A DNA stretch of 64,000 bases from Escherichia coli (lineage in GTDB: Bacteria; Pseudomonadota; Gammaproteobacteria; Enterobacterales; Enterobacteriaceae): the NCBI RefSeq assembly GCF_050320075.1, contig NZ_CP190018.1; one strand, written 5' to 3'. Made by a program: the position numbers and the translations under genes. Position 1 is the first letter of the stretch; each line of letters begins with the position of its first letter. Below the pieces are notes generated by a model. That model was given only the letters and a program-made list of their open reading frames with translations, made no database searches and was not told the DNA's origin. Positions 4,687-62,419 of the stretch are shown here, piece by piece.

Positions 4687-6339
<1,653 letters not shown>

Positions 6340-6411
6340 GTAAAAAAGTTAGAACGGCAACGCGTACCCTGGGTACGCGTTGTTTGTCTGGAGTTTCAGT
6401 TTAACTAGTGA

Positions 6412-7725
<1,314 letters not shown>

Positions 7726-50185: not shown

Positions 50186-50593
50186 CTATGTGTTCATCAT
50201 CTTGCGCACCAACTGCATAAACAGCTCCTGCTCTTCTGCACTCAAACGCCCCAAAAATTCCTCATCCACGCTGTCACCAATGGGGATCGCCGCAGCAAGT
50301 ACCTTTTCTCCTTCGGCAGTCAGCCAGACAAAGCGTCGCCGCTTGTCAGCGGCGTCATGTTCACGTCTGACTAAGCCACGATTTTCCATTCTTGCCAACA
50401 TTTCTGCCAGCGTTGCTTTGGTGCTGACTGCTGCTTCTATCAGTGCCACCTGTTCGATACCAGGCTTATCAGCAATGGCGCGCATCACCGCGTACTGTGG
50501 TTTGGTGAGGTCAGGTAACTCGTGCTGCCAGCGAGCCGTGTGCTGCTGAAAAAGCTGTCGTAACTGATGGAACGCTTTATTTCGTAACGCCAT
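50186..50593 (-). CDS. MarR/SlyA-family transcriptional regulator; start at MALRNKAF preceded by ggag
   Basis: winged-helix MarR-like sequence; divergent from the decarboxylase operon; ORF-track start at 50626 lacks a ribosome-binding site. Confidence 0.8.
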   Translation of the reverse strand: MALRNKAFHQLRQLFQQHTARWQHELPDLTKPQYAVMRAIADKPGIEQVALIEAAVSTKATLAEMLARMENRGLVRREHDAADKRRRFVWLTAEGEKVLAAAIPIGDSVDEEFLGRLSAEEQELFMQLVRKMMNT

Positions 50594-50739
50594 GTAAACT
50601 CCGGGCAAACTATCTGCCGCTATCATAGCGGTTTTTCAGTGACGAAGAAGATGTTGTTACTTTTCAGTGCTTGCCGCGATGAAAACAGAGGCGTATTTTA
50701 ATAATAACGTTCGTATACGAACAATTAAGAGAATAAACA

Positions 50740-51333
50740 ATGAGACTGATCGTCGGGATGACAGGGGCCACCGGAGCGCCTCTTGGTGTGGCATTACTGC
50801 AAGCGCTGCGGGAGATGCCGAATGTCGAGACTCATCTGGTGATGTCGAAGTGGGCGAAAACCACCATTGAACTGGAAACGCCTTACAACGCCCGCGATGT
50901 TGCTGCCCTCGCAGACTTCTGCCATAACCCGGCGGATCAGGCCGCAACCATCTCCTCAGGTTCCTTTCGTACCGACGGCATGATCGTTATTCCGTGCAGT
51001 ATGAAAACGCTCGCCGGTATCCGTGCCGGTTACGCCGATGGCCTGGTAGGGCGCGCGGCGGACGTCGTGCTCAAAGAAGGCCGCAAACTAGTGCTGGTGC
51101 CGCGTGAAATGCCGCTTAGCACCATCCATCTCGAAAATATGCTCGCACTTTCACGCATGGGCGTGGCGATGGTGCCGCCGATGCCTGCCTTTTATAACCA
51201 TCCCGAAACGGTAGATGACATTGTCCACCACGTGGTAGCCCGCGTGCTGGATCAATTTGGCCTCGAACATCCTCACGCCAGGCGCTGGCAAGGATTGCCG
51301 CAGGCCCGGAATTTTTCTCAGGAGAATGAATAA
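50740..51333 (+). CDS. UbiX/Pad1-family flavin prenyltransferase (decarboxylase B subunit)
   Basis: 197-aa ORF MRLIVGMTGATGAPLGVALLQAL... typical of UbiX flavoproteins. Confidence 0.88.
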   Translation: MRLIVGMTGATGAPLGVALLQALREMPNVETHLVMSKWAKTTIELETPYNARDVAALADFCHNPADQAATISSGSFRTDGMIVIPCSMKTLAGIRAGYADGLVGRAADVVLKEGRKLVLVPREMPLSTIHLENMLALSRMGVAMVPPMPAFYNHPETVDDIVHHVVARVLDQFGLEHPHARRWQGLPQARNFSQENE

Positions 51334-52760
51334 TGGCATTTGATGATTTACGCAGCTTTTTACAGGCGCTTGATGACCACGGCCAGTTACTGAAAATCAG
51401 CGAAGAGGTGAACGCGGAACCGGATCTGGCAGCCGCTGCCAACGCCACCGGACGTATCGGCGATGTTGCACCGGCGCTGTGGTTTGACAATATTCGCGGC
51501 TTTATCGATGCCCGCGTGGCAATGAACACCATCGGTTCCTGGCAGAACCACGCGATTTCCCTCGGCCTGCCGCCAAACACCCCGGTTAAAAAACAGATTG
51601 ATGAGTTTATCCGCCGCTGGGATAACTTCCCCATTGCCCCGGAGCGCCGCGCCAATCCAGCCTGGGCGCAGAACACCGTCGATGGCGACGAGATCAACCT
51701 GTTCGATATTCTGCCTCTGTTTCGTTTAAACGACGGTGATGGCGGTTTCTATCTCGACAAAGCGTGCGTGGTTTCCCGCGATCCGCTTGATCCGGATAAC
51801 TTCGGCAAGCAGAACGTCGGCATCTACCGTATGGAAGTGAAGGGTAAGCGTAAGCTCGGTCTGCAACCGGTGCCGATGCACGATATCGCCCTGCATCTGC
51901 ATAAAGCGGAAGAACGCGGTGAAGATCTGCCGATTGCCATCACACTCGGTAACGATCCGATCATCACCCTGATGGGGGCCACGCCGCTGAAATATGATCA
52001 GTCCGAGTACGAAATGGCAGGCGCGCTGCGTGAAAGCCCGTACCCGATCGCCACCGCCCCGCTGACTGGTTTTGATGTGCCGTGGGGTTCAGAAGTGATC
52101 CTCGAAGGGGTCATCGAAAGCCGTAAACGCGAAATCGAAGGGCCGTTTGGTGAGTTTACCGGGCACTACTCCGGCGGGCGTAACATGACCGTGGTGCGTA
52201 TCGATAAAGTCTCTTATCGCAGCAAACCCATTTTTGAATCGCTCTATCTCGGGATGCCGTGGACGGAAATCGACTACCTGATGGGGCCAGCCACCTGCGT
52301 GCCGCTGTATCAGCAACTGAAAGCCGAGTTCCCGGAAGTGCAGGCGGTAAATGCCATGTACACCCACGGCCTGCTGGCGATTATCTCCACCAAAAAACGC
52401 TACGGTGGCTTTGCCCGCGCGGTGGGCCTGCGTGCGATGACCACGCCACACGGTCTGGGCTACGTGAAGATGGTGATTATGGTCGATGAAGACGTTGATC
52501 CGTTCAACCTGCCGCAGGTGATGTGGGCGCTCTCTTCGAAAGTGAACCCGGCAGGGGATTTGGTGCAGTTGCCGAATATGTCCGTGCTGGAACTCGACCC
52601 CGGCTCAAGCCCGGCCGGTATCACCGACAAGCTGATTATCGACGCCACCACGCCTGTCGCCCCGGACAACCGTGGTCACTACAGCCAGCCGGTGGTGGAT
52701 TTACCGGAAACCAAAGCCTGGGCTGAAAAACTGACCGCTATGCTGGCCGCACGTAAATAA
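51333..52760 (+). CDS. UbiD-family (prenylated-FMN-dependent) aromatic acid decarboxylase (C subunit)
   Basis: 475-aa ORF, UbiD-like; start overlaps the stop of the UbiX-like gene. Confidence 0.88.
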   Translation: MAFDDLRSFLQALDDHGQLLKISEEVNAEPDLAAAANATGRIGDVAPALWFDNIRGFIDARVAMNTIGSWQNHAISLGLPPNTPVKKQIDEFIRRWDNFPIAPERRANPAWAQNTVDGDEINLFDILPLFRLNDGDGGFYLDKACVVSRDPLDPDNFGKQNVGIYRMEVKGKRKLGLQPVPMHDIALHLHKAEERGEDLPIAITLGNDPIITLMGATPLKYDQSEYEMAGALRESPYPIATAPLTGFDVPWGSEVILEGVIESRKREIEGPFGEFTGHYSGGRNMTVVRIDKVSYRSKPIFESLYLGMPWTEIDYLMGPATCVPLYQQLKAEFPEVQAVNAMYTHGLLAIISTKKRYGGFARAVGLRAMTTPHGLGYVKMVIMVDEDVDPFNLPQVMWALSSKVNPAGDLVQLPNMSVLELDPGSSPAGITDKLIIDATTPVAPDNRGHYSQPVVDLPETKAWAEKLTAMLAARK

Positions 52761-52770
52761 GGAGAACAAG

Positions 52771-53007
52771 ATGATTTGTCCACGTTGTGCTGATGAACAG
52801 ATTGAAGTGATGGCGAAATCGCCGGTAAAAGATGTCTGGACGGTCTACCAGTGCCAGCATTGCCTCTATACCTGGCGCGATACCGAACCGCTACGCCGCA
52901 CCAGCCGCGAACATTATCCCGAAGCGTTCCGCATGACACAGAAAGATATTGATGACGCGCCGATGGTGCCGAGCATCCCGCCGCTGCTGGCGGAAGGTAA
53001 GCGCTAA
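52771..53007 (+). CDS. small Zn-ribbon-type subunit of the hydroxyarylic acid decarboxylase (D subunit)
   Basis: 78-aa ORF with CPRC ... CQHC cysteine pairs, directly downstream of the UbiD-like gene. Confidence 0.75.
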   Translation: MICPRCADEQIEVMAKSPVKDVWTVYQCQHCLYTWRDTEPLRRTSREHYPEAFRMTQKDIDDAPMVPSIPPLLAEGKR

Positions 53008-53010
53008 ATA

Positions 53011-53039
53011 AAAGGTCCGATGCCCATCGGACCTTTTTA
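53011..53039. terminator. bidirectional terminator between the convergent decarboxylase operon and ygbN
   Basis: aaaaGGTCCGATGcccATCGGACCttttt. Confidence 0.8.
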
Positions 53040-53045
53040 TTAAGG

Positions 53046-54410
53046 TCAAATTACCGCCCATACGCACCAGGTAATTAAGAATCCGGTAAAACCGAGAATG
53101 GTCGTTAACACTGTCCAGGTTTTCAGACCGTCTGCTACCGATAACCCCAGATATTTGGTCACAATCCAGAACCCTGAGTCATTAATATGTGACGCGCCAA
53201 GCCCACCAAAGCAGGCTGCCAGCGTCACCAATACGCACTGAATCGGATTCAATCCCATCACCGCTTCTGAGAGTAACCCGCCGGTTGTCAGGATTGCTAC
53301 GGTTGCTGACCCCTGCGATGCACGCAGCGCCAGTGAAATAATAAATGCGGCTGGTAACAGAGGCAGGTCAATCATTTGTAGCATGTTGGCAAGGGCTTTG
53401 CCGACGCCCGATTCCACCAGCACTTTGCCAAATACCCCTCCAGCACCAGTAACCAAAATCACTACCGCCGCGGTGGGAAGGGCTGAGCCCATAATGTCGC
53501 TGGTGTGTTGTAAGCTCCAGCCGCGACGTAAAGCCAATAACCAGAATGCCAGCACCAGCGCAATCATTAGAGCTACCATTGGTGAGCCGATCAGCTGTAG
53601 CGTACCAAGCAGGGGATGCGAAGGCGGCATCAGTGTTGCGGAAACCGTACCCGCCATGATAATCGCGATAGGAATAACAATTAGCGAGGTGACCAGCGCG
53701 ACGCCCGGTGGATTTATTTTATCGCTTAATTTTGTCGCGCCTTCCTCACTGGCCGGAGCCAGTTGCATCTGTTCCAGTACTTCCACCGACATCGCATATT
53801 GGCGCTTATTGATTATTTTCGCTGCAAAGTAGCCAACAATCCCTACGGGAATAGAAATCGCAATACCGATGATGGTTAGCCAGCCGATGTCTGCGTGGAG
53901 TAACCCCGCTGCGGCGACAGGGCCTGGATGCGGCGGTACCGCCACATGAACAGTTAGCATGATTCCAGCGACAGGCAGGCCAAATTTGAGTGGCGATATT
54001 TTGGCAACCTTGGCAAAACCGTAAATGATTGGCGCAAGAATAATAAAGCCGACATCAAAGAAGACGGGAATACCGAGGAAGAACGCTGCCAGAGTCAGCG
54101 CAGCGATAGTTCGTTTGTCACCTAACTTGCGACTGAAATAATTAGCCAGTGACTCTGCACCACCAGAGTGTTCGATCATACGCCCCAGCATAGCGCCCAG
54201 ACCAATAATAATAGTGACGGAACCAAGCACACCGCCCATCCCGGCGATCATCACTTTACCCACTTCGCCCGCCGGTATACCCGCCGCAAGTGCGACTAAC
54301 AGGCTGACGAGGAGCAGAGCAACGAATGGTTGTACCTTTGCCTTGATGACCAGCAGCAACAGCATGATTACGCCAGTTAACGCAATGCATAACAATGTAA
54401 TTGTGGACAT
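53046..54410 (-). CDS. ygbN: GntP-family permease
   Basis: 454-aa hydrophobic ORF, GntP-like. Confidence 0.85.
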   Translation of the reverse strand: MSTITLLCIALTGVIMLLLLVIKAKVQPFVALLLVSLLVALAAGIPAGEVGKVMIAGMGGVLGSVTIIIGLGAMLGRMIEHSGGAESLANYFSRKLGDKRTIAALTLAAFFLGIPVFFDVGFIILAPIIYGFAKVAKISPLKFGLPVAGIMLTVHVAVPPHPGPVAAAGLLHADIGWLTIIGIAISIPVGIVGYFAAKIINKRQYAMSVEVLEQMQLAPASEEGATKLSDKINPPGVALVTSLIVIPIAIIMAGTVSATLMPPSHPLLGTLQLIGSPMVALMIALVLAFWLLALRRGWSLQHTSDIMGSALPTAAVVILVTGAGGVFGKVLVESGVGKALANMLQMIDLPLLPAAFIISLALRASQGSATVAILTTGGLLSEAVMGLNPIQCVLVTLAACFGGLGASHINDSGFWIVTKYLGLSVADGLKTWTVLTTILGFTGFLITWCVWAVI

Positions 54411-54498
54411 GGGAAACCCTGTCTGAAAGTTATAGTTAACCTACCCCATCCGTAGATGGGGGGATGTATGGGTACTTTGTAATTAGGGATTTAACGAA

Positions 54499-55275
54499 TT
54501 AGCGCCAGGCGTCAAACCAGCCAAGCCCTTCTTCGGTGAGGCCACGAGGTTTATATTCACAACCGATCCAGCCCTGATATCCCACCTCATCGAACAGGCG
54601 GAACAGCCACGGATAGTTGATTTCTCCATCGTCCGGTTCATGTCGATCAGGTAGTCCGGCAATTTGTACGTGCGCATATTTCCCGGCGTAGTCGCGGATT
54701 AAATGCGTCAGGTTGCCATCTACTTTTTGCGCATGAAAAGTATCTAGTTGAATAAACACGTTATCTCGTGCAACTTCTTCAACAATAGCCAGTGCCTGAT
54801 ACTGGCTGGAGAAGAGATAATGAGGCTTAACGCCGGGGCTGAGTGCTTCAACTAATATTCGCTTGCCGTGTGGCGCAAAGCGGTCGGCAGCGTAGCGGAG
54901 ATTATCGATAAATACTGCCCTGTACCGTTCAGCATCTTCGCCAGCGGGCACGACGCCTGCCATCACATGGACTTGTTCACAATTGAGCGCCAATGCATAT
55001 TCCAGTGCCAGGTCGATGTCTGCGTGTGCTTCGTGCTCACGTCCGGGAAGGGCGGATAATCCCCATTCCCCCGCATTAATATCTCCGGGAGCGGTATTGA
55101 ACAGCGCCAGTGTCAGATGGTTTTGCTCCAGTTGCTTTTGGATTTGCAGGGTGGAGTAGTCATAGGGAAACAGAAATTCCACAGCATCGAACCCGGCTTT
55201 TCGCGCTGCGGCGAAGCGTTCAATAAAAGGCACTTCGGTGAACATCATGGATAAATTAGCTGCAAAACGAGGCAT
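54499..55275 (-). CDS. ygbM: hydroxypyruvate-isomerase-like TIM-barrel isomerase (2-oxo-tetronate isomerase OtnI-type)
   Basis: 258-aa ORF; xylose-isomerase-like TIM barrel; operon context. Confidence 0.8.
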
Positions 55276-55279
55276 TGCA

Positions 55280-55918
55280 TTAACTCCTTAATTCCGCAAT
55301 TTCACCTGCGGTCAGATAACGGATCGGGCGGTCACCGAGAATAAAAATCAGCTTTGCCGTTTCCTCCAGCTCTTCCATATTGTTGGCGGCTTCTTGCAGG
55401 CTTTCACCGCAAACCACTGGGCCATGATTTGCCAGTAAAAAAGCCTGATTGTCTGCTGCCAGTTCCGCCAGATCCTGTGCGATGCGTTTATCGCCCGGTC
55501 GGTAATAAGGCACCAGCGGGACATTTCCCATCCGCATCACCACGTATGGTGTGAACGGACGAATAACGTTGCTGCTGTCCAGCCCTTGCAGGCAGGAAAG
55601 CGCCGTCGACCATGTGCTGTGCAAATGCACCACCGCTTTACAGCGCGGATTGTTGCGATACAGCGCCAGATGAAAGAGCACCTCTTTCGAGGGTTTGTCA
55701 CCACTTAACCATTCGCCATCCGCGGCGACTTTGGAAAGCCGCTGCGGATCGAGATTGCCCAGGCATGAACCTGTCGGTGTCGCCAGTAAATTCCCGTCAG
55801 GTAAAAGCAGCGACAGATTGCCAGCCGAACCGGTTGCATAGCCGCGCTGAAAGAATGAACTGGCAATCCGCGTCATCTCCTCTCGCAAAGACTGCTCTAC
55901 TTTTGCGAAATCGCTCAT
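55280..55918 (-). CDS. ygbL: class II aldolase/adducin-family protein (3-oxo-tetronate 4-phosphate decarboxylase OtnC-type)
   Basis: 212-aa ORF; operon context. Confidence 0.8.
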
Positions 55919-57177
55919 GATAAAAACTCTCTTTGGGCTCGTGAAAAAAAGGCTTCATCACCGAAGTTGCCAGATTTAAGGGCGAGTGAGACAGGTTTAT
56001 CCAGTGCGTTTACCCACGGCACGCCGGGAGAAATGGTTGGGCCAATATGAAACCCTTTTATTCCCAGGCTCTGTGTGACTACGCCGGAGGTCTCACCGCC
56101 TGCGACAATAAAGCGTGTCACGCCTTCCGCTGCTAACCGCGCCGCTAGTTGAGAAAACAGTGTTTCTACTGCCTGACTGGCTTTTTGTGCACCGTATTGC
56201 TGTTGAATTGCTGCCAATGCGTCAGTGCTGGCGGTGGCAAAAACCAGTGGAGCAAGTACACTTTCCTGGCCCAGAACCCACTCTGCCAGTTCGTGTGCAT
56301 AAGCGGCCAGAGTTTCAATTGAGAGGCAGCGTGCCACATCAACTTCACGGGCTGGTGCAATTTGACGGTAATGTGCTACCTGGCGGTTGGTCATTTGAGA
56401 GCATGAACCGGAGAGCACTACGCCGCGCCCAGCGAGCGGATGCCCTGCTTTGCGAGCCTGGTTACCGTTTTCTTGCGCCCACTGCCGGGCAAGGCCAATC
56501 GCCAGACCAGAACCGCCCGTTACCAGTGGGGTATCGCGCAAGGCTTCTCCCTGAATTTCCAGATGGTGTTCGGTCAGCGCATCAAGCACCGCGTAGCGGT
56601 AGCCCTCTTGCTGTAAGCGAGCCAGCTCTTGACGAACGGCATCCACACCTTGTTCGAAAACATGTGCCGAAACGACGCCGCAGCGCCCTGTGGATTGCGC
56701 TTCAACCAGACGGGGAAGATAGCTGTCGGTCATGGGATTTACCGGGTGATGGCGCATCCCGGATTCGGCCAGCAGTTGATTCATTACGAACAAATACCCC
56801 TGATAAACCGTACGTCCGTTGACCGGCAGGGCCGGAGAGAAGACCGTAAACGGCGTGTCGAGAGCATCCATTAATGCATCGGTAACCGGGCCGATATTAC
56901 CTTTCGCCGAACTGTCGAAAGTAGAGCAGTATTTGAAATAGATCTGTTTGCAACCTTGCTGTTGCAACCAGCTCAGTGCCGCCAGCGATTGCTGTGTGGC
57001 TTCAACCACCGGACAGGAACGCGTTTTCAGGCTGATCACCAGTGCGTCGATTGCTTCCGGCATTTTACCTGTTGGAACACCGTTAATTTGTACCGTTGGT
57101 AGACCGTTTTCCACCAGAAAACTGGCGATATCCGTCGCGCCGGTAAAATCATCGGCGATAACGCCAATCTTGATCAT
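55915..57177 (-). CDS. ygbK: DUF1537-family four-carbon acid-sugar kinase (OtnK-type)
   Basis: 420-aa ORF; overlapping stop/start with flanking genes. Confidence 0.8.
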   Translation of the reverse strand: MIKIGVIADDFTGATDIASFLVENGLPTVQINGVPTGKMPEAIDALVISLKTRSCPVVEATQQSLAALSWLQQQGCKQIYFKYCSTFDSSAKGNIGPVTDALMDALDTPFTVFSPALPVNGRTVYQGYLFVMNQLLAESGMRHHPVNPMTDSYLPRLVEAQSTGRCGVVSAHVFEQGVDAVRQELARLQQEGYRYAVLDALTEHHLEIQGEALRDTPLVTGGSGLAIGLARQWAQENGNQARKAGHPLAGRGVVLSGSCSQMTNRQVAHYRQIAPAREVDVARCLSIETLAAYAHELAEWVLGQESVLAPLVFATASTDALAAIQQQYGAQKASQAVETLFSQLAARLAAEGVTRFIVAGGETSGVVTQSLGIKGFHIGPTISPGVPWVNALDKPVSLALKSGNFGDEAFFSRAQREFLS

Positions 57178-58082
57178 GATTTCGCTCCCGGTAGAGTGAT
57201 GCCAGAGAAAATCTTGATAACTGCGCTATCGTCTTCTTTCCCGTAACCCGCGTTACTGGCGCTGGTGAACATATTCAATGCTGTTGAGGCCAATGGCAGC
57301 GGGAAGTGCAGGGCTTTGGCTGTATCGGCAACCAGACCAAGATCCTTAACAAAAATATCGACGGCTGAATGCGGGGTGTAATCGCCATCCACCACATGAC
57401 GCATCCGGTTTTCGAACATCCAGGAATTTCCGGCGGCATTGGTCACGACGTCATACATCACATCCAGCGGGATCCCCGCACGGGCTGCAAGTGCCATCGC
57501 TTCGGCTCCGGCAGCAATATGTACGCCCGCTAACAACTGGTGAATAATTTTTACGGTCGAACCTAGTCCCGGTTCTGCACCTATGCGATAAACTTTTCCG
57601 GCAACGGCTTCCAGCACGGGTGCCAGTCGTTCAAAGGCAATATCGCTACCGGAGGCCATGACAGTCATTTCACCGTTAGCGGCTTTTACTGCACCACCAG
57701 AAACTGGCGCATCCAGCATTTCCAGATCGAATCCAGCCAGAGCGGTAGCAATTTCTTGCGCATCAGCACTAGCGATAGTGGAAGAAACCATTACTGCCGT
57801 ACCGGGTTTCAGATGTTGTGCAACGCCTGTTTCACCAAACAGCACCTGTTTAACCTGGGCCGCATTGACCACCAGCACCAGCAGAGCGTCCAGTTTTTCG
57901 GCAAACGTCGCGGCGTTATCAGAAACCCCGCAAGCACCTGCCTCTTTCAACGTAGCGCAGGCATTGCTGTTCAGGTCTGCGCCCCAGGTAGAAAGACCTG
58001 CGCGGACACATGACAGTGCTGCTCCCATTCCCATTGACCCTAAGCCAACGATACCGACATGAAACTCAGATCCCGTTTTCAT
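57174..58082 (-). CDS. ygbJ: NAD-dependent 3-hydroxyisobutyrate-dehydrogenase-family enzyme (L-threonate dehydrogenase LtnD-type)
   Basis: 302-aa ORF with N-terminal GLGSMGMGAA Rossmann motif. Confidence 0.85.
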   Translation of the reverse strand: MKTGSEFHVGIVGLGSMGMGAALSCVRAGLSTWGADLNSNACATLKEAGACGVSDNAATFAEKLDALLVLVVNAAQVKQVLFGETGVAQHLKPGTAVMVSSTIASADAQEIATALAGFDLEMLDAPVSGGAVKAANGEMTVMASGSDIAFERLAPVLEAVAGKVYRIGAEPGLGSTVKIIHQLLAGVHIAAGAEAMALAARAGIPLDVMYDVVTNAAGNSWMFENRMRHVVDGDYTPHSAVDIFVKDLGLVADTAKALHFPLPLASTALNMFTSASNAGYGKEDDSAVIKIFSGITLPGAKS

Positions 58083-58247
58083 CTGCTCTCCTTGTTAATT
58101 TAAGTGATATTTTGTTTGATATTGTGAATATAGGCGCTGGAAGATAACGATATGGTGAGCTGATTCACAAAAATTAACATTGTGTGTTATTTTATGTGAA
58201 CTAAGCGTTAGTTGCGCCGCGCACGTTTCGCAGGCAAATAGCGTAGA

Positions 58248-59045
58248 ATGTCAGCAGGACAAAGGAAGGAGCAAAAGTTGATACCCGTAGAGCGTCGCCA
58301 AATCATCCTTGAGATGGTAGCTGAAAAAGGCATTGTCAGTATTGCTGAACTAACGGACAGAATGAATGTGTCACATATGACCATTCGTCGGGATTTACAA
58401 AAACTGGAGCAGCAGGGAGCCGTTGTGCTGGTGTCCGGAGGCGTCCAGTCTCCGGGACGCGTGGCGCATGAACCTTCTCATCAGGTAAAAACTGCGCTGG
58501 CAATGACGCAAAAAGCGGCTATTGGCAAGCTGGCGGCAAGTCTTGTTCAGCCGGGAAGTTGTATCTATCTGGATGCGGGAACGACCACGCTAGCGATAGC
58601 ACAGCATCTGATTCACATGGAGTCACTGACTGTGGTCACAAACGATTTCGTTATTGCGGACTACTTGCTCGACAACAGTAATTGCACAATTATTCACACT
58701 GGCGGTGCAGTGTGTCGGGAAAACCGTTCCTGTGTCGGGGAAGCCGCTGCGACCATGCTGCGCAGCCTGATGATTGATCAGGCTTTTATTTCTGCATCGT
58801 CATGGAGTGTGCGGGGGATTTCTACGCCAGCGGAAGATAAAGTCACGGTGAAACGGGCGATTGCCAGTGCCAGCCGCCAGCGAGTTTTGGTCTGTGATGC
58901 GACGAAATATGGTCAGGTGGCGACATGGCTGGCGTTACCATTAAGCGAGTTTGATCAGATTATTACAGACGACGGTTTGCCGGAGAGTGCCAGTCGCGCG
59001 CTGGCGAAGCAGGATCTCTCTTTGCTGGTAGCGAAAAATGAATAA
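58248..59045 (+). CDS. ygbI: DeoR-family transcriptional repressor (true start may be a few codons downstream)
   Basis: N-terminal HTH (IVSIAELTDRMNVSHMTIRRDL) plus DeoR C-terminal sugar-phosphate sensor domain; divergent from ygbJ. Confidence 0.85.
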   Translation: MSAGQRKEQKLIPVERRQIILEMVAEKGIVSIAELTDRMNVSHMTIRRDLQKLEQQGAVVLVSGGVQSPGRVAHEPSHQVKTALAMTQKAAIGKLAASLVQPGSCIYLDAGTTTLAIAQHLIHMESLTVVTNDFVIADYLLDNSNCTIIHTGGAVCRENRSCVGEAAATMLRSLMIDQAFISASSWSVRGISTPAEDKVTVKRAIASASRQRVLVCDATKYGQVATWLALPLSEFDQIITDDGLPESASRALAKQDLSLLVAKNE

Positions 59046-59095
59046 TGGCCTGCAATAACACCGGGTTACTCATGCTTCACAGAAGAAGCATGAGA

Positions 59096-59752
59096 CTACT
59101 TTATTTTATAAAATGACAGCCGCCCGCTTTTCGGCGATCCGGTATCAATATAAATCTGGTTTGCGAACGTCTGAATGTTATCAAACATCATATGTCCAAA
59201 TATAAAATAATCAGCGCCGTTTATTTGTTGTAACTCGCCATTAAGCGATTTCTGCACACGATCAACAGGCCAGAGTAGTTCTCTCTCCGCTATTTCTTTG
59301 CCAAAGAGATATTCATTCCCCGGATAATCTGCATGTGCGATGACATATTTTATTATGTCGTTAGTGATTTCAATAATATGTGGAAGGCGATGAAATTTCA
59401 GCAACAGATTTATTGCTTCTTGTTGTTCCGTCTCATTTAATTCAAAGAACCAGTCGCCGCCGCTGGCAAGCCACATATTTCCATCGCCAGTTTCGAATGC
59501 ATCAAGCGCCATCGCTTCATGGTTGCCTTTAACCGATGTAAACCAGGGCTGGTTTAACAGGCGTAGTACGTTAAGACTCTCCGGCCCACGATCAATATTA
59601 TCGCCGACAGAAATAAGTAAGTCGGTTTCAGGGAAAAAAGAGAGTTGATGTAAGCGGGATTGTAATAATTGATAGTCACCATGAATATCACCAACGGCCC
59701 ATATATAACGATAGTGATGGGCATTAATTTTTTGATAGCGTGTAGATGGCAT
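59096..59752 (-). CDS. pphB: serine/threonine protein phosphatase 2 (calcineurin-like metallophosphatase)
   Basis: 218-aa ORF with GDIHG, GDxxDRG and GNHE motifs. Confidence 0.93.
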   Translation of the reverse strand: MPSTRYQKINAHHYRYIWAVGDIHGDYQLLQSRLHQLSFFPETDLLISVGDNIDRGPESLNVLRLLNQPWFTSVKGNHEAMALDAFETGDGNMWLASGGDWFFELNETEQQEAINLLLKFHRLPHIIEITNDIIKYVIAHADYPGNEYLFGKEIAERELLWPVDRVQKSLNGELQQINGADYFIFGHMMFDNIQTFANQIYIDTGSPKSGRLSFYKIK

Positions 59753-59857
59753 GGTTTTACCCTGTAAAATAAGATTTCCTATTATACAGGGTGTTTTTAT
59801 TTGATTCGTCTGTTGTCGTTAATATTCCCGATAGCAAAAGACTATCGGGAATTGTTA

Positions 59858-62419
59858 TTACACCAGACTCTTCAAGCGATAAATCCACTCCAGCGCCTGA
59901 CGCGGAGTCAGTGAATCCGGGTCGAGATTTTCCAGTGCTTCGACCGCAGGCGACGTTTCTTCTGGCACTGACAGCAAAGACATTTGCGTACCATCCACTT
60001 GCGTAGCGGCGGCGTTCGGCGAAATGCTTTCCAACTCACGCAGTTTTTGCCGTGCGCGCTTAATAACCTCTTTTGGCACGCCGGCCAGAGCTGCAACCGC
60101 CAGGCCGTAGCTTTTGCTCGCCGCGCCATCCTGCACGCTGTGCATAAAGGCAATGGTGTCGCCGTGCTCCAGCGCATCGAGATGCACGTTGGCGACGCCT
60201 TCCATTTTCTCCGGTAACTGGGTCAGCTCGAAATAGTGGGTGGCAAACAGTGTCAACGCTTTAATCTTATTCGCCAGATTTTCCGCGCACGCCCACGCCA
60301 GCGACAGACCATCGTAAGTGGACGTCCCGCGCCCAATCTCATCCATCAGCACCAGACTGTACTCGGTGGCGTTATGTAAAATATTGGCGGTTTCGGTCAT
60401 TTCCACCATAAAGGTTGAACGCCCGGATGCCAGATCATCCGCTGCCCCTACGCGGGTAAAGATGCGATCGATAGGTCCAATCTCGACTTTTTGTGCCGGT
60501 ACATAGCTGCCGATGTAGGCCATCAGCGCAATCAGTGCGGTCTGGCGCATATAGGTACTTTTACCGCCCATATTCGGACCGGTAATGATCAACATGCGAC
60601 GCTGCGGCGACAGGTTCAGCGGGTTGGCGATAAACGGCTCATTCAGCACCTGTTCAACCACCGGATGGCGGCCTTCGGTGATGCGAATACCCGGTTTATC
60701 AATAAAGGTCGGGCAGGTGTAGTTCAGCGTATAGGCCCGTTCTGCCAGGTTCACCAGCACGTCGAGTTCCGCCAGCGCGCTCGCGCTCTGTTGCAACGCT
60801 TCCAGATGCGGCAACAGCAGGTCGAACAACTCTTCATAAAGCTGTTTTTCCAGTGCCAGTGCTTTGCCTTTTGAAGTGAGAACTTTGTCTTCGTACTCTT
60901 TTAGCTCTGGAATAATGTAGCGTTCGGCGTTTTTCAGCGTCTGGCGGCGCATGTAGTTAATCGGTGCCAGATGGCTTTGTCCACGGCTGATCTGAATGTA
61001 ATAACCATGCACCGCGTTAAATCCGACTTTCAGCGTGTCCAGGCCGGTACGTTCACGCTCGCGGACTTCCAGACGCTCCAGATAATCGGTCGCGCCGTCA
61101 GCCAGCGCGCGCCACTCATCCAGCTCTTCGTTATAGCCCGATGCGATAACACCACCGTCGCGCACCAGTACCGGCGGTGTGTCGATAATGGCCCGCTCCA
61201 GCAGATCGCGCAGTTCGGCAAACTCACCCATCTTCTCACGCAGCGCCTGTACCGGAGCGCTATCGACATTTTCTAACTGCGCACGCAGCTCCGGCAGTTG
61301 CTGGAAAGCGTGACGCATACGGGCCAGATCGCGTGGGCGAGCAGTTCGTAAAGCCAGACGTGCCAGAATACGTTCCAGGTCGCCGACCTGACGCAGCACC
61401 GGCTGTAGCTCGGCGGTGAAATCCTGCAATGCGCCAATAGTTTGCTGGCGCTCAAGCAACACGCGGGTATCGCGCACTGGCATATGCAGCCAGCGTTTCA
61501 GCATACGACTACCCATTGGCGTTACAGTGCAGTCGAGCACTGAAGCCAGCGTGTTTTCCGCACCGCCCGCCAGGTTCTGAGTAATTTCCAGGTTACGACG
61601 TGTCGCGGCATCCATAATGATGCTGTCCTGCTCACGTTCCATGGTGATAGAACGAATATGCGGCAGGGTCGTACGTTGGGTATCTTTCGCATACTGCAAC
61701 AGACAACCGGCAGCACAAAGTCCGCGCGGCGCGTTCTCGACGCCAAAACCGACCAGATCGCGGGTGCCAAATTGCAGATTCAACTGCTGGCGCGCGGTGT
61801 CGATTTCAAACTCCCACAGCGGGCGACGGCGCAGGCCGCGACGGCCTTCAATTAACGACATTTCAGCAAAATCTTCTGCATACAGCAGTTCCGCCGGATT
61901 AGTGCGTTGCAGTTCTGCCGCCATCGTTTCGCGGTCAGCCGGTTCGCTCAGGCGAAAACGACCGGAACTGATATCCAGCGTCGCGTAGCCGAAACCTTTG
62001 CTGTCCTGCCAGATAGCCGCCAGCAGGTTGTCCTGACGCTCCTGCAACAGGGCTTCATCGCTGATGGTGCCTGGCGTAACGATACGCACAACTTTGCGCT
62101 CAACCGGACCTTTGCTGGTCGCCGGATCGCCAATTTGTTCGCAGATGGCAACGGACTCGCCCTGATTCACCAGTTTGGCGAGGTAGTTTTCCACCGCATG
62201 GTAGGGGATCCCCGCCATCGGGATCGGCTCTCCCGCGGAAGCACCGCGTTTGGTCAGTGAAATATCCAGCAGCTGCGAGGCGCGTTTCGCGTCGTCATAA
62301 AACAGTTCGTAAAAGTCACCCATCCGATAGAACAGCAGGATCTCGGGATGCTGGGCTTTCAGCTTGAGATACTGCTGCATCATGGGCGTATGGGCATCGA
62401 AATTTTCTATTGCACTCAT
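59858..62419 (-). CDS. mutS: DNA mismatch repair protein MutS
   Basis: 853-aa [43 protein letters not shown]..., Walker [10 protein letters not shown]. Confidence 0.98.

Follow-up and report, generated by a model that had tools for sequence, protein, structure and literature searches.

The ygbI–ygbJKLMN cluster of Escherichia coli as a predicted L-threonate form of the four-step tetronate pathway, with a frameshifted ygbK in K-12

Which substrate do the ygb genes between mutS and rpoS serve in Escherichia coli? Positions 53046–59045 of a 64,000-nucleotide stretch of E. coli contig NZ_CP190018.1 (assembly GCF_050320075.1; the whole stretch is referred to here as the window) carry ygbJKLMN and the divergent gene ygbI. 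A preliminary description, made from the sequence alone, had reported a permease, a TIM-barrel isomerase, a class II aldolase-like decarboxylase, a DUF1537 kinase, and a dehydrogenase with a divergent DeoR-type regulator, and had assigned the set to catabolism of L-threonate and D-erythronate, which are acid sugars with four carbons. Six open reading frames (ORFs) with these domains are indeed present, and the tetronate interpretation is supported and is already known: RefSeq carries the names ltnD, otnK, and otnC at the locus (order in the best-matching annotation: ygbN, ygbM, otnC, otnK, ltnD, ygbI), and the K-12 record labels all four enzymes as "putative" tetronate enzymes. We consider it very probable that the cluster is the E. 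coli form of the four-step tetronate pathway, limited to L-threonate and encoded in a CRP-dependent operon repressed by YgbI.

Gene content, family membership, synteny, repeats, and the intactness of reading frames were obtained here with computational tools. The literature supplies the repression exerted by YgbI and the one site that it binds in K-12, the footprint of CRP, and the chemistry of the pathway as described for other bacteria. From these we infer L-threonate as the substrate in E. coli, as well as operator identity, promoter geometry, and the inducer, with function assigned by homology.

Enzyme families and the predicted pathway

Gene coordinates (Table 1) derive from an ORF listing of positions 51000–61500. 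Pfam profiles are matched end to end by all six proteins, with E values from 1e-34 to 1e-154: GntP_permease in YgbN; a xylose isomerase-like TIM barrel (PF01261/AP_endonuc_2) in YgbM; Aldolase_II (PF00596) in YgbL; SBD_N and NBD_C, formerly DUF1537, in YgbK; NAD_binding_2 with NAD_binding_11 in YgbJ; and HTH_DeoR (PF08220) with DeoRC (PF00455) in YgbI. Because the NCBIfam matches also run essentially end to end, all six reading frames are intact.

NCBIfam equivalog models with curated bit-score cut-offs were used to separate tetronate enzymes from paralogous families. All four enzymes exceed the cut-offs of the LtnD, OtnI, OtnK, and OtnC models, and the rival models remain below theirs. YgbJ scores 473.6 bits against L-threonate dehydrogenase (NF043037; cut-off 350; profile positions 3–296 of 297), with 2-hydroxy-3-oxopropionate reductase as best rival at 197.5 bits (cut-off 397) and the tartronate-semialdehyde reductase (GarR-type) models likewise below their own cut-offs. 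YgbK reaches 596.2 bits with 3-oxo-tetronate kinase (NF043035; cut-off 350), as compared with 130.1 bits for D-threonate kinase (NF047819; cut-off 450). [quoted passage not shown] YgbN matches NF007332 over the whole profile (827.5 bits; cut-off 524; positions 1–454 of 454) and PF02447 with E = 1.7e-154, and is the predicted L-threonate:H+ importer; de-repression of ygbN has been tied to growth on 2,4-dihydroxybutyrate, a deoxy-tetronate analogue (review PMC12709889). YgbK is also distinct from the PdxA2-linked DUF1537 kinases (the D-threonate kinase DtnK and relatives), in that it fails the D-threonate kinase equivalog and no pdxA2-like ORF was seen among ORFs of at least 80 amino acids (aa) in 51000–61500.

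Structural matches and conserved residues are consistent with these assignments. YgbJ matches PDB 3g0o (E = 4.8e-149), YgbL gives a near-identical alignment to 6vop (E = 1.1e-139), and 1k77 is E. coli YgbM itself. YgbK is 80% identical to 3dqq. We take 3dqq and 3g0o to be Salmonella proteins and 5dmh to come from Ralstonia eutropha H16. The preliminary description had held that low similarity to characterized tetronate enzymes would count against its assignment; similarity is not low, as judged by the equivalog scores and by YgbK identities of 56% to 1yzy (Haemophilus influenzae HI1011) and 48% to 5dmh, a comparison in which direct identity to characterized enzymes covers OtnK, via PDB chains, and LtnD, OtnI, and OtnC are assessed through equivalog models. 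In alignments of 54–80 homologs, YgbJ retains the GLGxMG motif and conserved D36 and K178; YgbL retains H83, H98, and H100, each kept in at least 97% of 74 homologs; and YgbM has E143, D178, H181, H202, and E240, as expected for the fold. YgbK contains ADDFTG, GGETS, and KSGNFG, as well as C-terminal residues between G385 and F411 that are kept in at least 97% of 80 homologs.

The RefSeq product name for ygbM, assigned by the Prokaryotic Genome Annotation Pipeline (PGAP), is "HPr family phosphocarrier protein." This name is wrong for a protein with an AP_endonuc_2 domain, a structure in PDB 1k77, and a score above the NF043033 cut-off; it arises because the top-scoring NCBIfam model, NF007441 (PRK09989), bears that description.

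In the described pathway, LtnD converts L-threonate to 2-oxo-tetronate, OtnI converts 2-oxo-tetronate to 3-oxo-tetronate, OtnK uses ATP to form 3-oxo-tetronate 4-phosphate, and OtnC converts the latter to dihydroxyacetone phosphate (DHAP) and CO2 (Zhang et al., 2016, as summarized in PMC12540250 and PMC12994016); pathway steps and knock-out phenotypes in other bacteria are covered in PMC12540250, PMC12994016, and PMC10580937. By homology, YgbN would import L-threonate; YgbJ (LtnD) would oxidize its C2 with NAD+ to 2-oxo-tetronate; YgbM (OtnI) would convert this to 3-oxo-tetronate; YgbK (OtnK) would phosphorylate the C4 hydroxyl at the expense of ATP; and YgbL (OtnC) would decarboxylate the product to DHAP and CO2, feeding glycolysis. 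LtnD, OtnI, full-length OtnK, and OtnC are all encoded in the cluster together with a transporter and a regulator, while the DenD branch is missing.

Two bypass routes lead from L-threonate to the same product, namely the three-step bypass (2-OtnK/2-OtnC; Guo et al., 2024), which lacks OtnI and uses an F_bP_aldolase-type decarboxylase (PMC12540250), and the Ltn3D bypass, which uses a short-chain dehydrogenase/reductase (SDR) (PMC12994016). Neither fits the cluster, which is placed with the classical four-step form because it encodes OtnI, an Aldolase_II decarboxylase, and an LtnD of the beta-hydroxyacid dehydrogenase type. The four-step pathway of R. eutropha (Cupriavidus necator) H16 and other bacteria, as summarized from Zhang et al. 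(2016) in PMC12540250, PMC12994016, and PMC10580937, comprises the same four families in a clustered, co-oriented arrangement with a DeoR-type regulator and a transporter. The E. coli cluster differs from that summarized system in lacking DenD and in having a GntP permease; its betaproteobacterial homologs are 39–56% identical, and function in E. coli is assigned by homology.

The gene order is widely conserved. A single profile search of representative genomes with an OtnK alignment yielded 80 loci, none of them from H. influenzae, C. necator, or P. atrosepticum, and these were re-annotated with the six E. coli proteins. A divergent regulator followed by ltnD-otnK-otnC-otnI-(permease) occurs in about 30 species from five gammaproteobacterial groups (Enterobacterales, Vibrionaceae, Aeromonadaceae, Pasteurellaceae, and Succinivibrionaceae), with 54–77% identity per protein; examples include Escherichia albertii, Dickeya, Serratia, Pectobacterium, Klebsiella, Erwinia, Pluralibacter, Pantoea, Vibrio, Marinomonas, Aeromonas, three Pasteurellaceae, and Succinivibrionaceae. 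In Burkholderiales, ltnD-otnK-otnC-otnI is kept at 39–56% identity.

The D-erythronate branch named in the preliminary description fares differently from the L-threonate branch, and its assignment must be corrected: gene content backs L-threonate, not D-erythronate. The D-erythronate dehydrogenase DenD (NF043036) was not found in the cluster or in the 64-kb window (best tblastn E = 1.1). DenD homologs lie beside otn genes in 33 of the 80 related loci but are absent from every enterobacterial locus of the E. coli type; an SDR gene of about 315 aa adjoins otn genes in Aeromonas, Marinomonas, Rodentibacter, Photorhabdus, Burkholderiales, and others, and two examples, neighbors of otn genes in Aeromonas and Rodentibacter, score 483 and 454 bits against NF043036 (cut-off 325). 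Brucella can no longer use L-threonate once LtnD is lost, and DenD sustains its use of D-erythronate (PMC10580937). Because L-threonate and D-erythronate each require their own dehydrogenase there, and DenD does not occur in the window, an L-threonate-only module is predicted. An operon serving both substrates, with D-erythronate oxidized by YgbJ or by an unlinked dehydrogenase, would be in keeping with a described pathway in which OtnI, OtnK, and OtnC are common to both branches and with the complete set of downstream enzymes here; given the substrate specificity of each Brucella dehydrogenase and the distribution of DenD, we regard this as unlikely. For Salmonella, the literature describes induction of ygbJKLM together with genes for a neighboring "nucleoside-diphosphate-sugar epimerase" and for a permease; this epimerase may be DenD.

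Related but divergent arrangements were also observed. Some E. coli carry a second cluster of different composition; in strain SCPM-O-B-8794 it lies beside glnH (locus L054, 7995–13676), with OtnK and OtnC above their cut-offs (524 and 290 bits), a YgbI-like regulator and an OtnI-like isomerase below theirs, and no LtnD; it adds a 3-keto-5-aminohexanoate-cleavage-like enzyme and a BASS-family transporter. In Yersinia artesiana and Y. thracica (loci L010 and L030), only ygbI-otnK-otnC-otnI were detected in the fetched flanks, with no ltnD, denD, or ygbN homolog there; these loci may start from another substrate or may be remnants.

Operon structure and the YgbI control region

The five genes lie next to one another on the minus strand, spaced by −4 (ygbJ/ygbK), −4 (ygbK/ygbL), 4 (ygbL/ygbM), and 88 nt (ygbM/ygbN). 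The 4-bp overlaps that had been attributed to the cluster as a whole are confined to ygbJ/ygbK (57174–57177) and ygbK/ygbL (55915–55918), each with the sequence ATGA; in the 4-nt gap between ygbL and ygbM there is no overlap, and the Shine-Dalgarno sequence TAAGGAG lies 9 nt upstream of the ygbM ATG. Among related loci, 46 of 71 have a 4-nt overlap between an in-frame start and the upstream stop at K/L; the J/K junction shows it in 17 of 50 loci and the L/M junction in 3 of 49. The tight translational coupling proposed in the preliminary description is therefore predicted for the kinase–decarboxylase and dehydrogenase–kinase pairs, via ATGA, and is not general to the operon.

The ygbM–ygbN spacer was considered as a structured RNA or internal terminator, and this was rejected, as its fold is no better than that of shuffled sequences (z = −0.98); a generic scan called no terminator or promoter on its minus strand. 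Beyond ygbN, the hairpin at 53010–53037 is likely to act as a bidirectional intrinsic terminator for ygbJKLMN and for the convergent decarboxylase subunit D gene, according to a manual reading of a site that the generic terminator scan did not list. The ygbJKLMN genes would form a single operon, transcribed from a CRP-dependent promoter in the divergent region to this hairpin.

Table 1. Positions of genes and of candidate regulatory features at the ygb locus, in window coordinates
Feature	Position	Strand	Description
ygbN	53046–54410	−	454 aa; GntP-family permease
ygbM	54499–55275	−	258 aa; = otnI, 2-oxo-tetronate isomerase (TIM barrel)
[quoted passage not shown]
ygbK	55915–57177	−	420 aa, full length; = otnK, 3-oxo-tetronate kinase
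ygbJ	57174–58082	−	302 aa; = ltnD, NAD-dependent L-threonate 2-dehydrogenase, beta-hydroxyacid dehydrogenase family
ygbI	58278–59045	+	255 aa from TTG; divergent DeoR-family repressor gene
Divergent control region ygbJ–ygbI	58083–58277		195 bp
Candidate YgbI operator copy 1, TGTTAATTTAAGTGA	58093–58107	+	downstream of predicted ygbJ −10
Candidate YgbI operator copy 2, TGTTTGATATTGTGA	58113–58127	+	abuts predicted ygbJ −10
Predicted ygbJ −10, TATATT	58127–58132	−	manual reading
CRP site, GGTGA-N6-TCACA	58154–58169		footprinted in vitro in K-12
Candidate YgbI operator copy 3, TGTTAATTTTTGTGA	58165–58179	−	overlaps CRP half-site
Candidate YgbI operator copy 4, TGTTATTTTATGTGA	58185–58199	+	overlaps promoter-like TTCACA-18-TATTTT, + strand, facing ygbI
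ygbM–ygbN spacer	54411–54498	−	88 nt; 7-bp hairpin CCCCATC/GATGGGG at 54444–54461, no T tract
Hairpin, AAAAGGTCCGATG-CCC-ATCGGACCTTTT	53010–53037		A/T runs on both sides; read from sequence
Hydroxyarylic acid decarboxylase subunits B, C, D	50740–51333, 51333–52760, 52771–53007		

YgbI is placed among the DeoR-family repressors by its HTH_DeoR and DeoRC domains and by NF040890 (482.5 bits; cut-off 400), with DNA binding taken from work in K-12. The longest ygbI ORF begins at ATG 58248, which has no Shine-Dalgarno sequence, and profile positions 1–253 of NF040890 correspond to residues 11–263 of this longer ORF. Three features make TTG 58278 the most likely start of ygbI, in preference to ATG 58248: GGAAGGAG lies 6 nt upstream of it, at 58264–58271; RefSeq uses this TTG; and the match to the family profile sets in at residue 11 of the longer ORF.

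In K-12, chromatin immunoprecipitation with exonuclease digestion (ChIP-exo) gave a single YgbI peak between ygbI and ygbJ, overlapping the ygbJ promoter, and deletion of ygbI raises ygbJKLMN expression (PMC8464067). Four TGTT-N7-GTGA repeats in the divergent region are proposed as candidate YgbI operators on the basis of that peak, that de-repression, and the conservation of the repeats. Exact copies number six in the 64-kb window (1.9 expected by chance), four of them within 58093–58199, where copies 3 and 4 form a 16-nt inverted repeat. With up to two mismatches allowed, the density of a related 16-mer in orthologous ygbI–ygbJ spacers of 29 loci is 5.2 per kb, as compared with 0.048 per kb across the other 435 kb of these loci, or 1.8 matches per spacer against a mean of 0.03 in the five most AT-rich control windows of each locus. 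A reading of the TGTGA repeats as CRP half-sites was rejected: only the pair at 58154–58169 has CRP spacing, and the TGTT-N7-GTGA register differs and is kept in orthologous spacers.

That CRP site has been footprinted in vitro in K-12 and is listed for ygbI/ygbJ with its center at 2861360 (PMC12871828). Four single-nucleotide polymorphisms (SNPs) relative to K-12 fall in the control region and leave both CRP half-sites intact. The center of the site is 29.5 nt upstream of TATATT, which corresponds to class II geometry (−41.5), and a class II CRP promoter is accordingly a candidate for ygbJ transcription. The DeoR-type YgbI would hold both the operon and its own gene off, most likely through the four repeats, which would straddle the −10, the CRP site, and ygbI's own promoter. 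The likely candidates for inducer are L-threonate or a pathway intermediate.

The Brucella VdtR operon offers a parallel for this scheme. There, a DeoR-family repressor binds the ltnD promoter, represses ltnD-otnK-otnI-...-otnC, and is relieved by tetronate substrates (PMC10580937). The Brucella cluster contains denD and a major facilitator superfamily (MFS) transporter and has its regulator gene inside the operon, whereas the E. coli cluster has a divergent regulator and no denD; by analogy, VdtR nonetheless appears to be a good model for YgbI.

The K-12 ygbK frameshift and the genomic setting

The ygbI–ygbJKLMN genes of K-12 MG1655 (b2735–b2740) are orthologous to those in the window and have the same order and regulator, with 44 differences over approximately 6.1 kb aligned (ragged ends excluded). 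Alignment reveals a 1-nt deletion in K-12 ygbK, at about 2,863,483 in NC_000913.3; the missing base corresponds to position 56029 of the window. Past ...GPTISP the sequence is read in another frame, and a stop follows four codons on. K-12 ygbK consequently encodes 388 aa and is separated from ygbL by a 91-nt gap (positions 5336–6502 of locus L082, from NC_000913.3), whereas ygbK in the window encodes 420 aa and overlaps ygbL by ATGA. The K-12 protein lacks G385, V386, P387, L400, K401, S402, G403, N404, F405, G406, F410, and F411; these twelve positions are each kept in at least 97% of 80 homologs and are invariant in four aligned OtnK sequences.

Of 4579 genomes, at most 371 contain a match of at least 99% identity to a 70-mer carrying the K-12 allele; that figure is an upper bound and not a count, as identity bands are confounded by nearby SNPs. 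Among the matches listed, all 40 records with the K-12 allele are K-12-derived laboratory strains or BLR(DE3). These data suggest that the 1-nt ygbK deletion is lineage-specific, private to K-12. The literature search found no paper noting a ygbK frameshift in K-12. Because RNA sequencing joins ygbK and ygbL on one transcript (PMC4168707), the separate "ygbJK" and "ygbLM" operons in RegulonDB probably reflect the frameshift.

The B-strain derivative BLR(DE3) (H56) itself carries the K-12 frameshift allele. Given how the strain was built, this would fit K-12 DNA having entered by co-transduction with srl-recA, a marker that lies nearby.

Many E. coli chromosomes, among them that of strain CFSAN061768, match the 6-kb stretch from 53046 to 59045 at 100% identity. 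The region occurs in 4602 of 5426 complete E. coli genomes (4576 with at least 80% coverage), at an identity of at least 95% in all but one record among the genomes that keep it; about 15% are without the cluster, and EDL933 is one such strain (PMC4209514). The GC fraction across the locus, 0.47–0.56, is unremarkable. In the RefSeq annotation of the best match, pphB–mutS lie on one flank, and the genes for three subunits of hydroxyarylic acid decarboxylase, a gene of the MarR family, and rpoS lie on the other, which places the locus in the known polymorphic mutS–rpoS region (PMC4209514).

Between ygbN and rpoS, positions 50186–53007 hold a MarR/SlyA-like regulator gene and the genes for hydroxyarylic acid decarboxylase subunits B, C, and D. 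These are missing from the ygbN–rpoS interval of K-12: downstream of the operon, the window has the decarboxylase genes and K-12 has rpoS directly. The arrangement in the window fits "pattern IV" of the polymorphic o454–nlpD (mutS–rpoS) region (PMC4209514). Elsewhere in the E. coli collection, one plasmid carries a distant partial copy of the region at 60–80% identity. The names ygbI, ygbJ, and ygbK recur in papers on IncX3 plasmids with blaSHV-12 or blaNDM, and pieces of a Klebsiella ygb locus apparently travel with blaSHV.

Native substrate and significance of the operon

Several lines of evidence weigh against L-threonate catabolism under YgbI and CRP control as proposed here. The searchable literature yielded neither growth of E. 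coli on L-threonate or other tetronates nor induction by L-threonate, nor any assay of the E. coli Ygb enzymes on tetronates; the published E. coli phenotypes are limited to growth of ygbI mutants on L- or meso-tartrate and to ygbN-linked use of 2,4-dihydroxybutyrate (PMC8464067; PMC6452873; PMC12709889). The operator and promoter assignments are computational, and the generic sigma-70 scan, which returned 7 sites against 5.9 expected by chance, called no minus-strand ygbJ promoter in the spacer.

The tartrate phenotypes raise the possibility that the native role of the cluster is catabolism of L- or meso-tartrate, with YgbJ oxidizing tartrate to oxaloglycolate and the other enzymes processing the product. 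Deletion of ygbI lets K-12 grow on 20 mM L-tartrate, where the wild type does not (PMC8464067), and ygbI mutations arose in both lines evolved on meso-tartrate (PMC6452873; growth of ygbI mutants on meso-tartrate is also documented in PMC6892915 and PMC12862375). On chemical grounds, tartrate is L-threonate with C4 oxidized to a carboxylate, so that the kinase step would not be needed, and a kinase-free route fits the growth of K-12, in which the kinase gene is frameshifted. However, wild-type K-12 fails to grow on tartrate, so tartrate seems not to relieve repression by YgbI; and because growth requires loss of the repressor, the mark of a promiscuous side activity, tartrate looks like a promiscuous rather than a cognate substrate. 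A tartrate route would also leave a conserved, translationally coupled C4-hydroxyl kinase without a substrate, and all four enzymes fall inside tetronate equivalogs. We consider a native tartrate role very unlikely.

The alternative that these genes form a cryptic or decaying accessory module, lacking any present physiological substrate in E. coli and kept only as a variable mutS–rpoS segment, would accord with their polymorphic location, their absence from some 15% of complete genomes (PMC4209514), and the K-12 frameshift, but is highly improbable given six intact frames matched end to end in the window, retention of the region at high identity in about 85% of genomes, a frameshift allele whose listed carriers are all laboratory strains, and operator repeats and gene overlaps conserved across families.

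Returning to L-threonate as the predicted substrate, we tentatively suggest, as a serious possibility but one we would not place at even chances, that natural E. coli with an intact 420-aa otnK may be able to use L-threonate and that the K-12 lineage is unable to do so through the ygbK deletion. If this is true, the picture of the locus drawn from K-12, with its "ygbJK" and "ygbLM" operons, YgbI as "a tartrate regulator," and the cluster as a reservoir of promiscuous activity, would reflect a kinase-dead background; the frameshifted kinase should in any case be borne in mind when K-12 data on the locus are read. L-threonate is a major breakdown product of ascorbate (vitamin C), and through the operon E. 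coli in the gut could plausibly draw on a carbon source supplied by diet and host.

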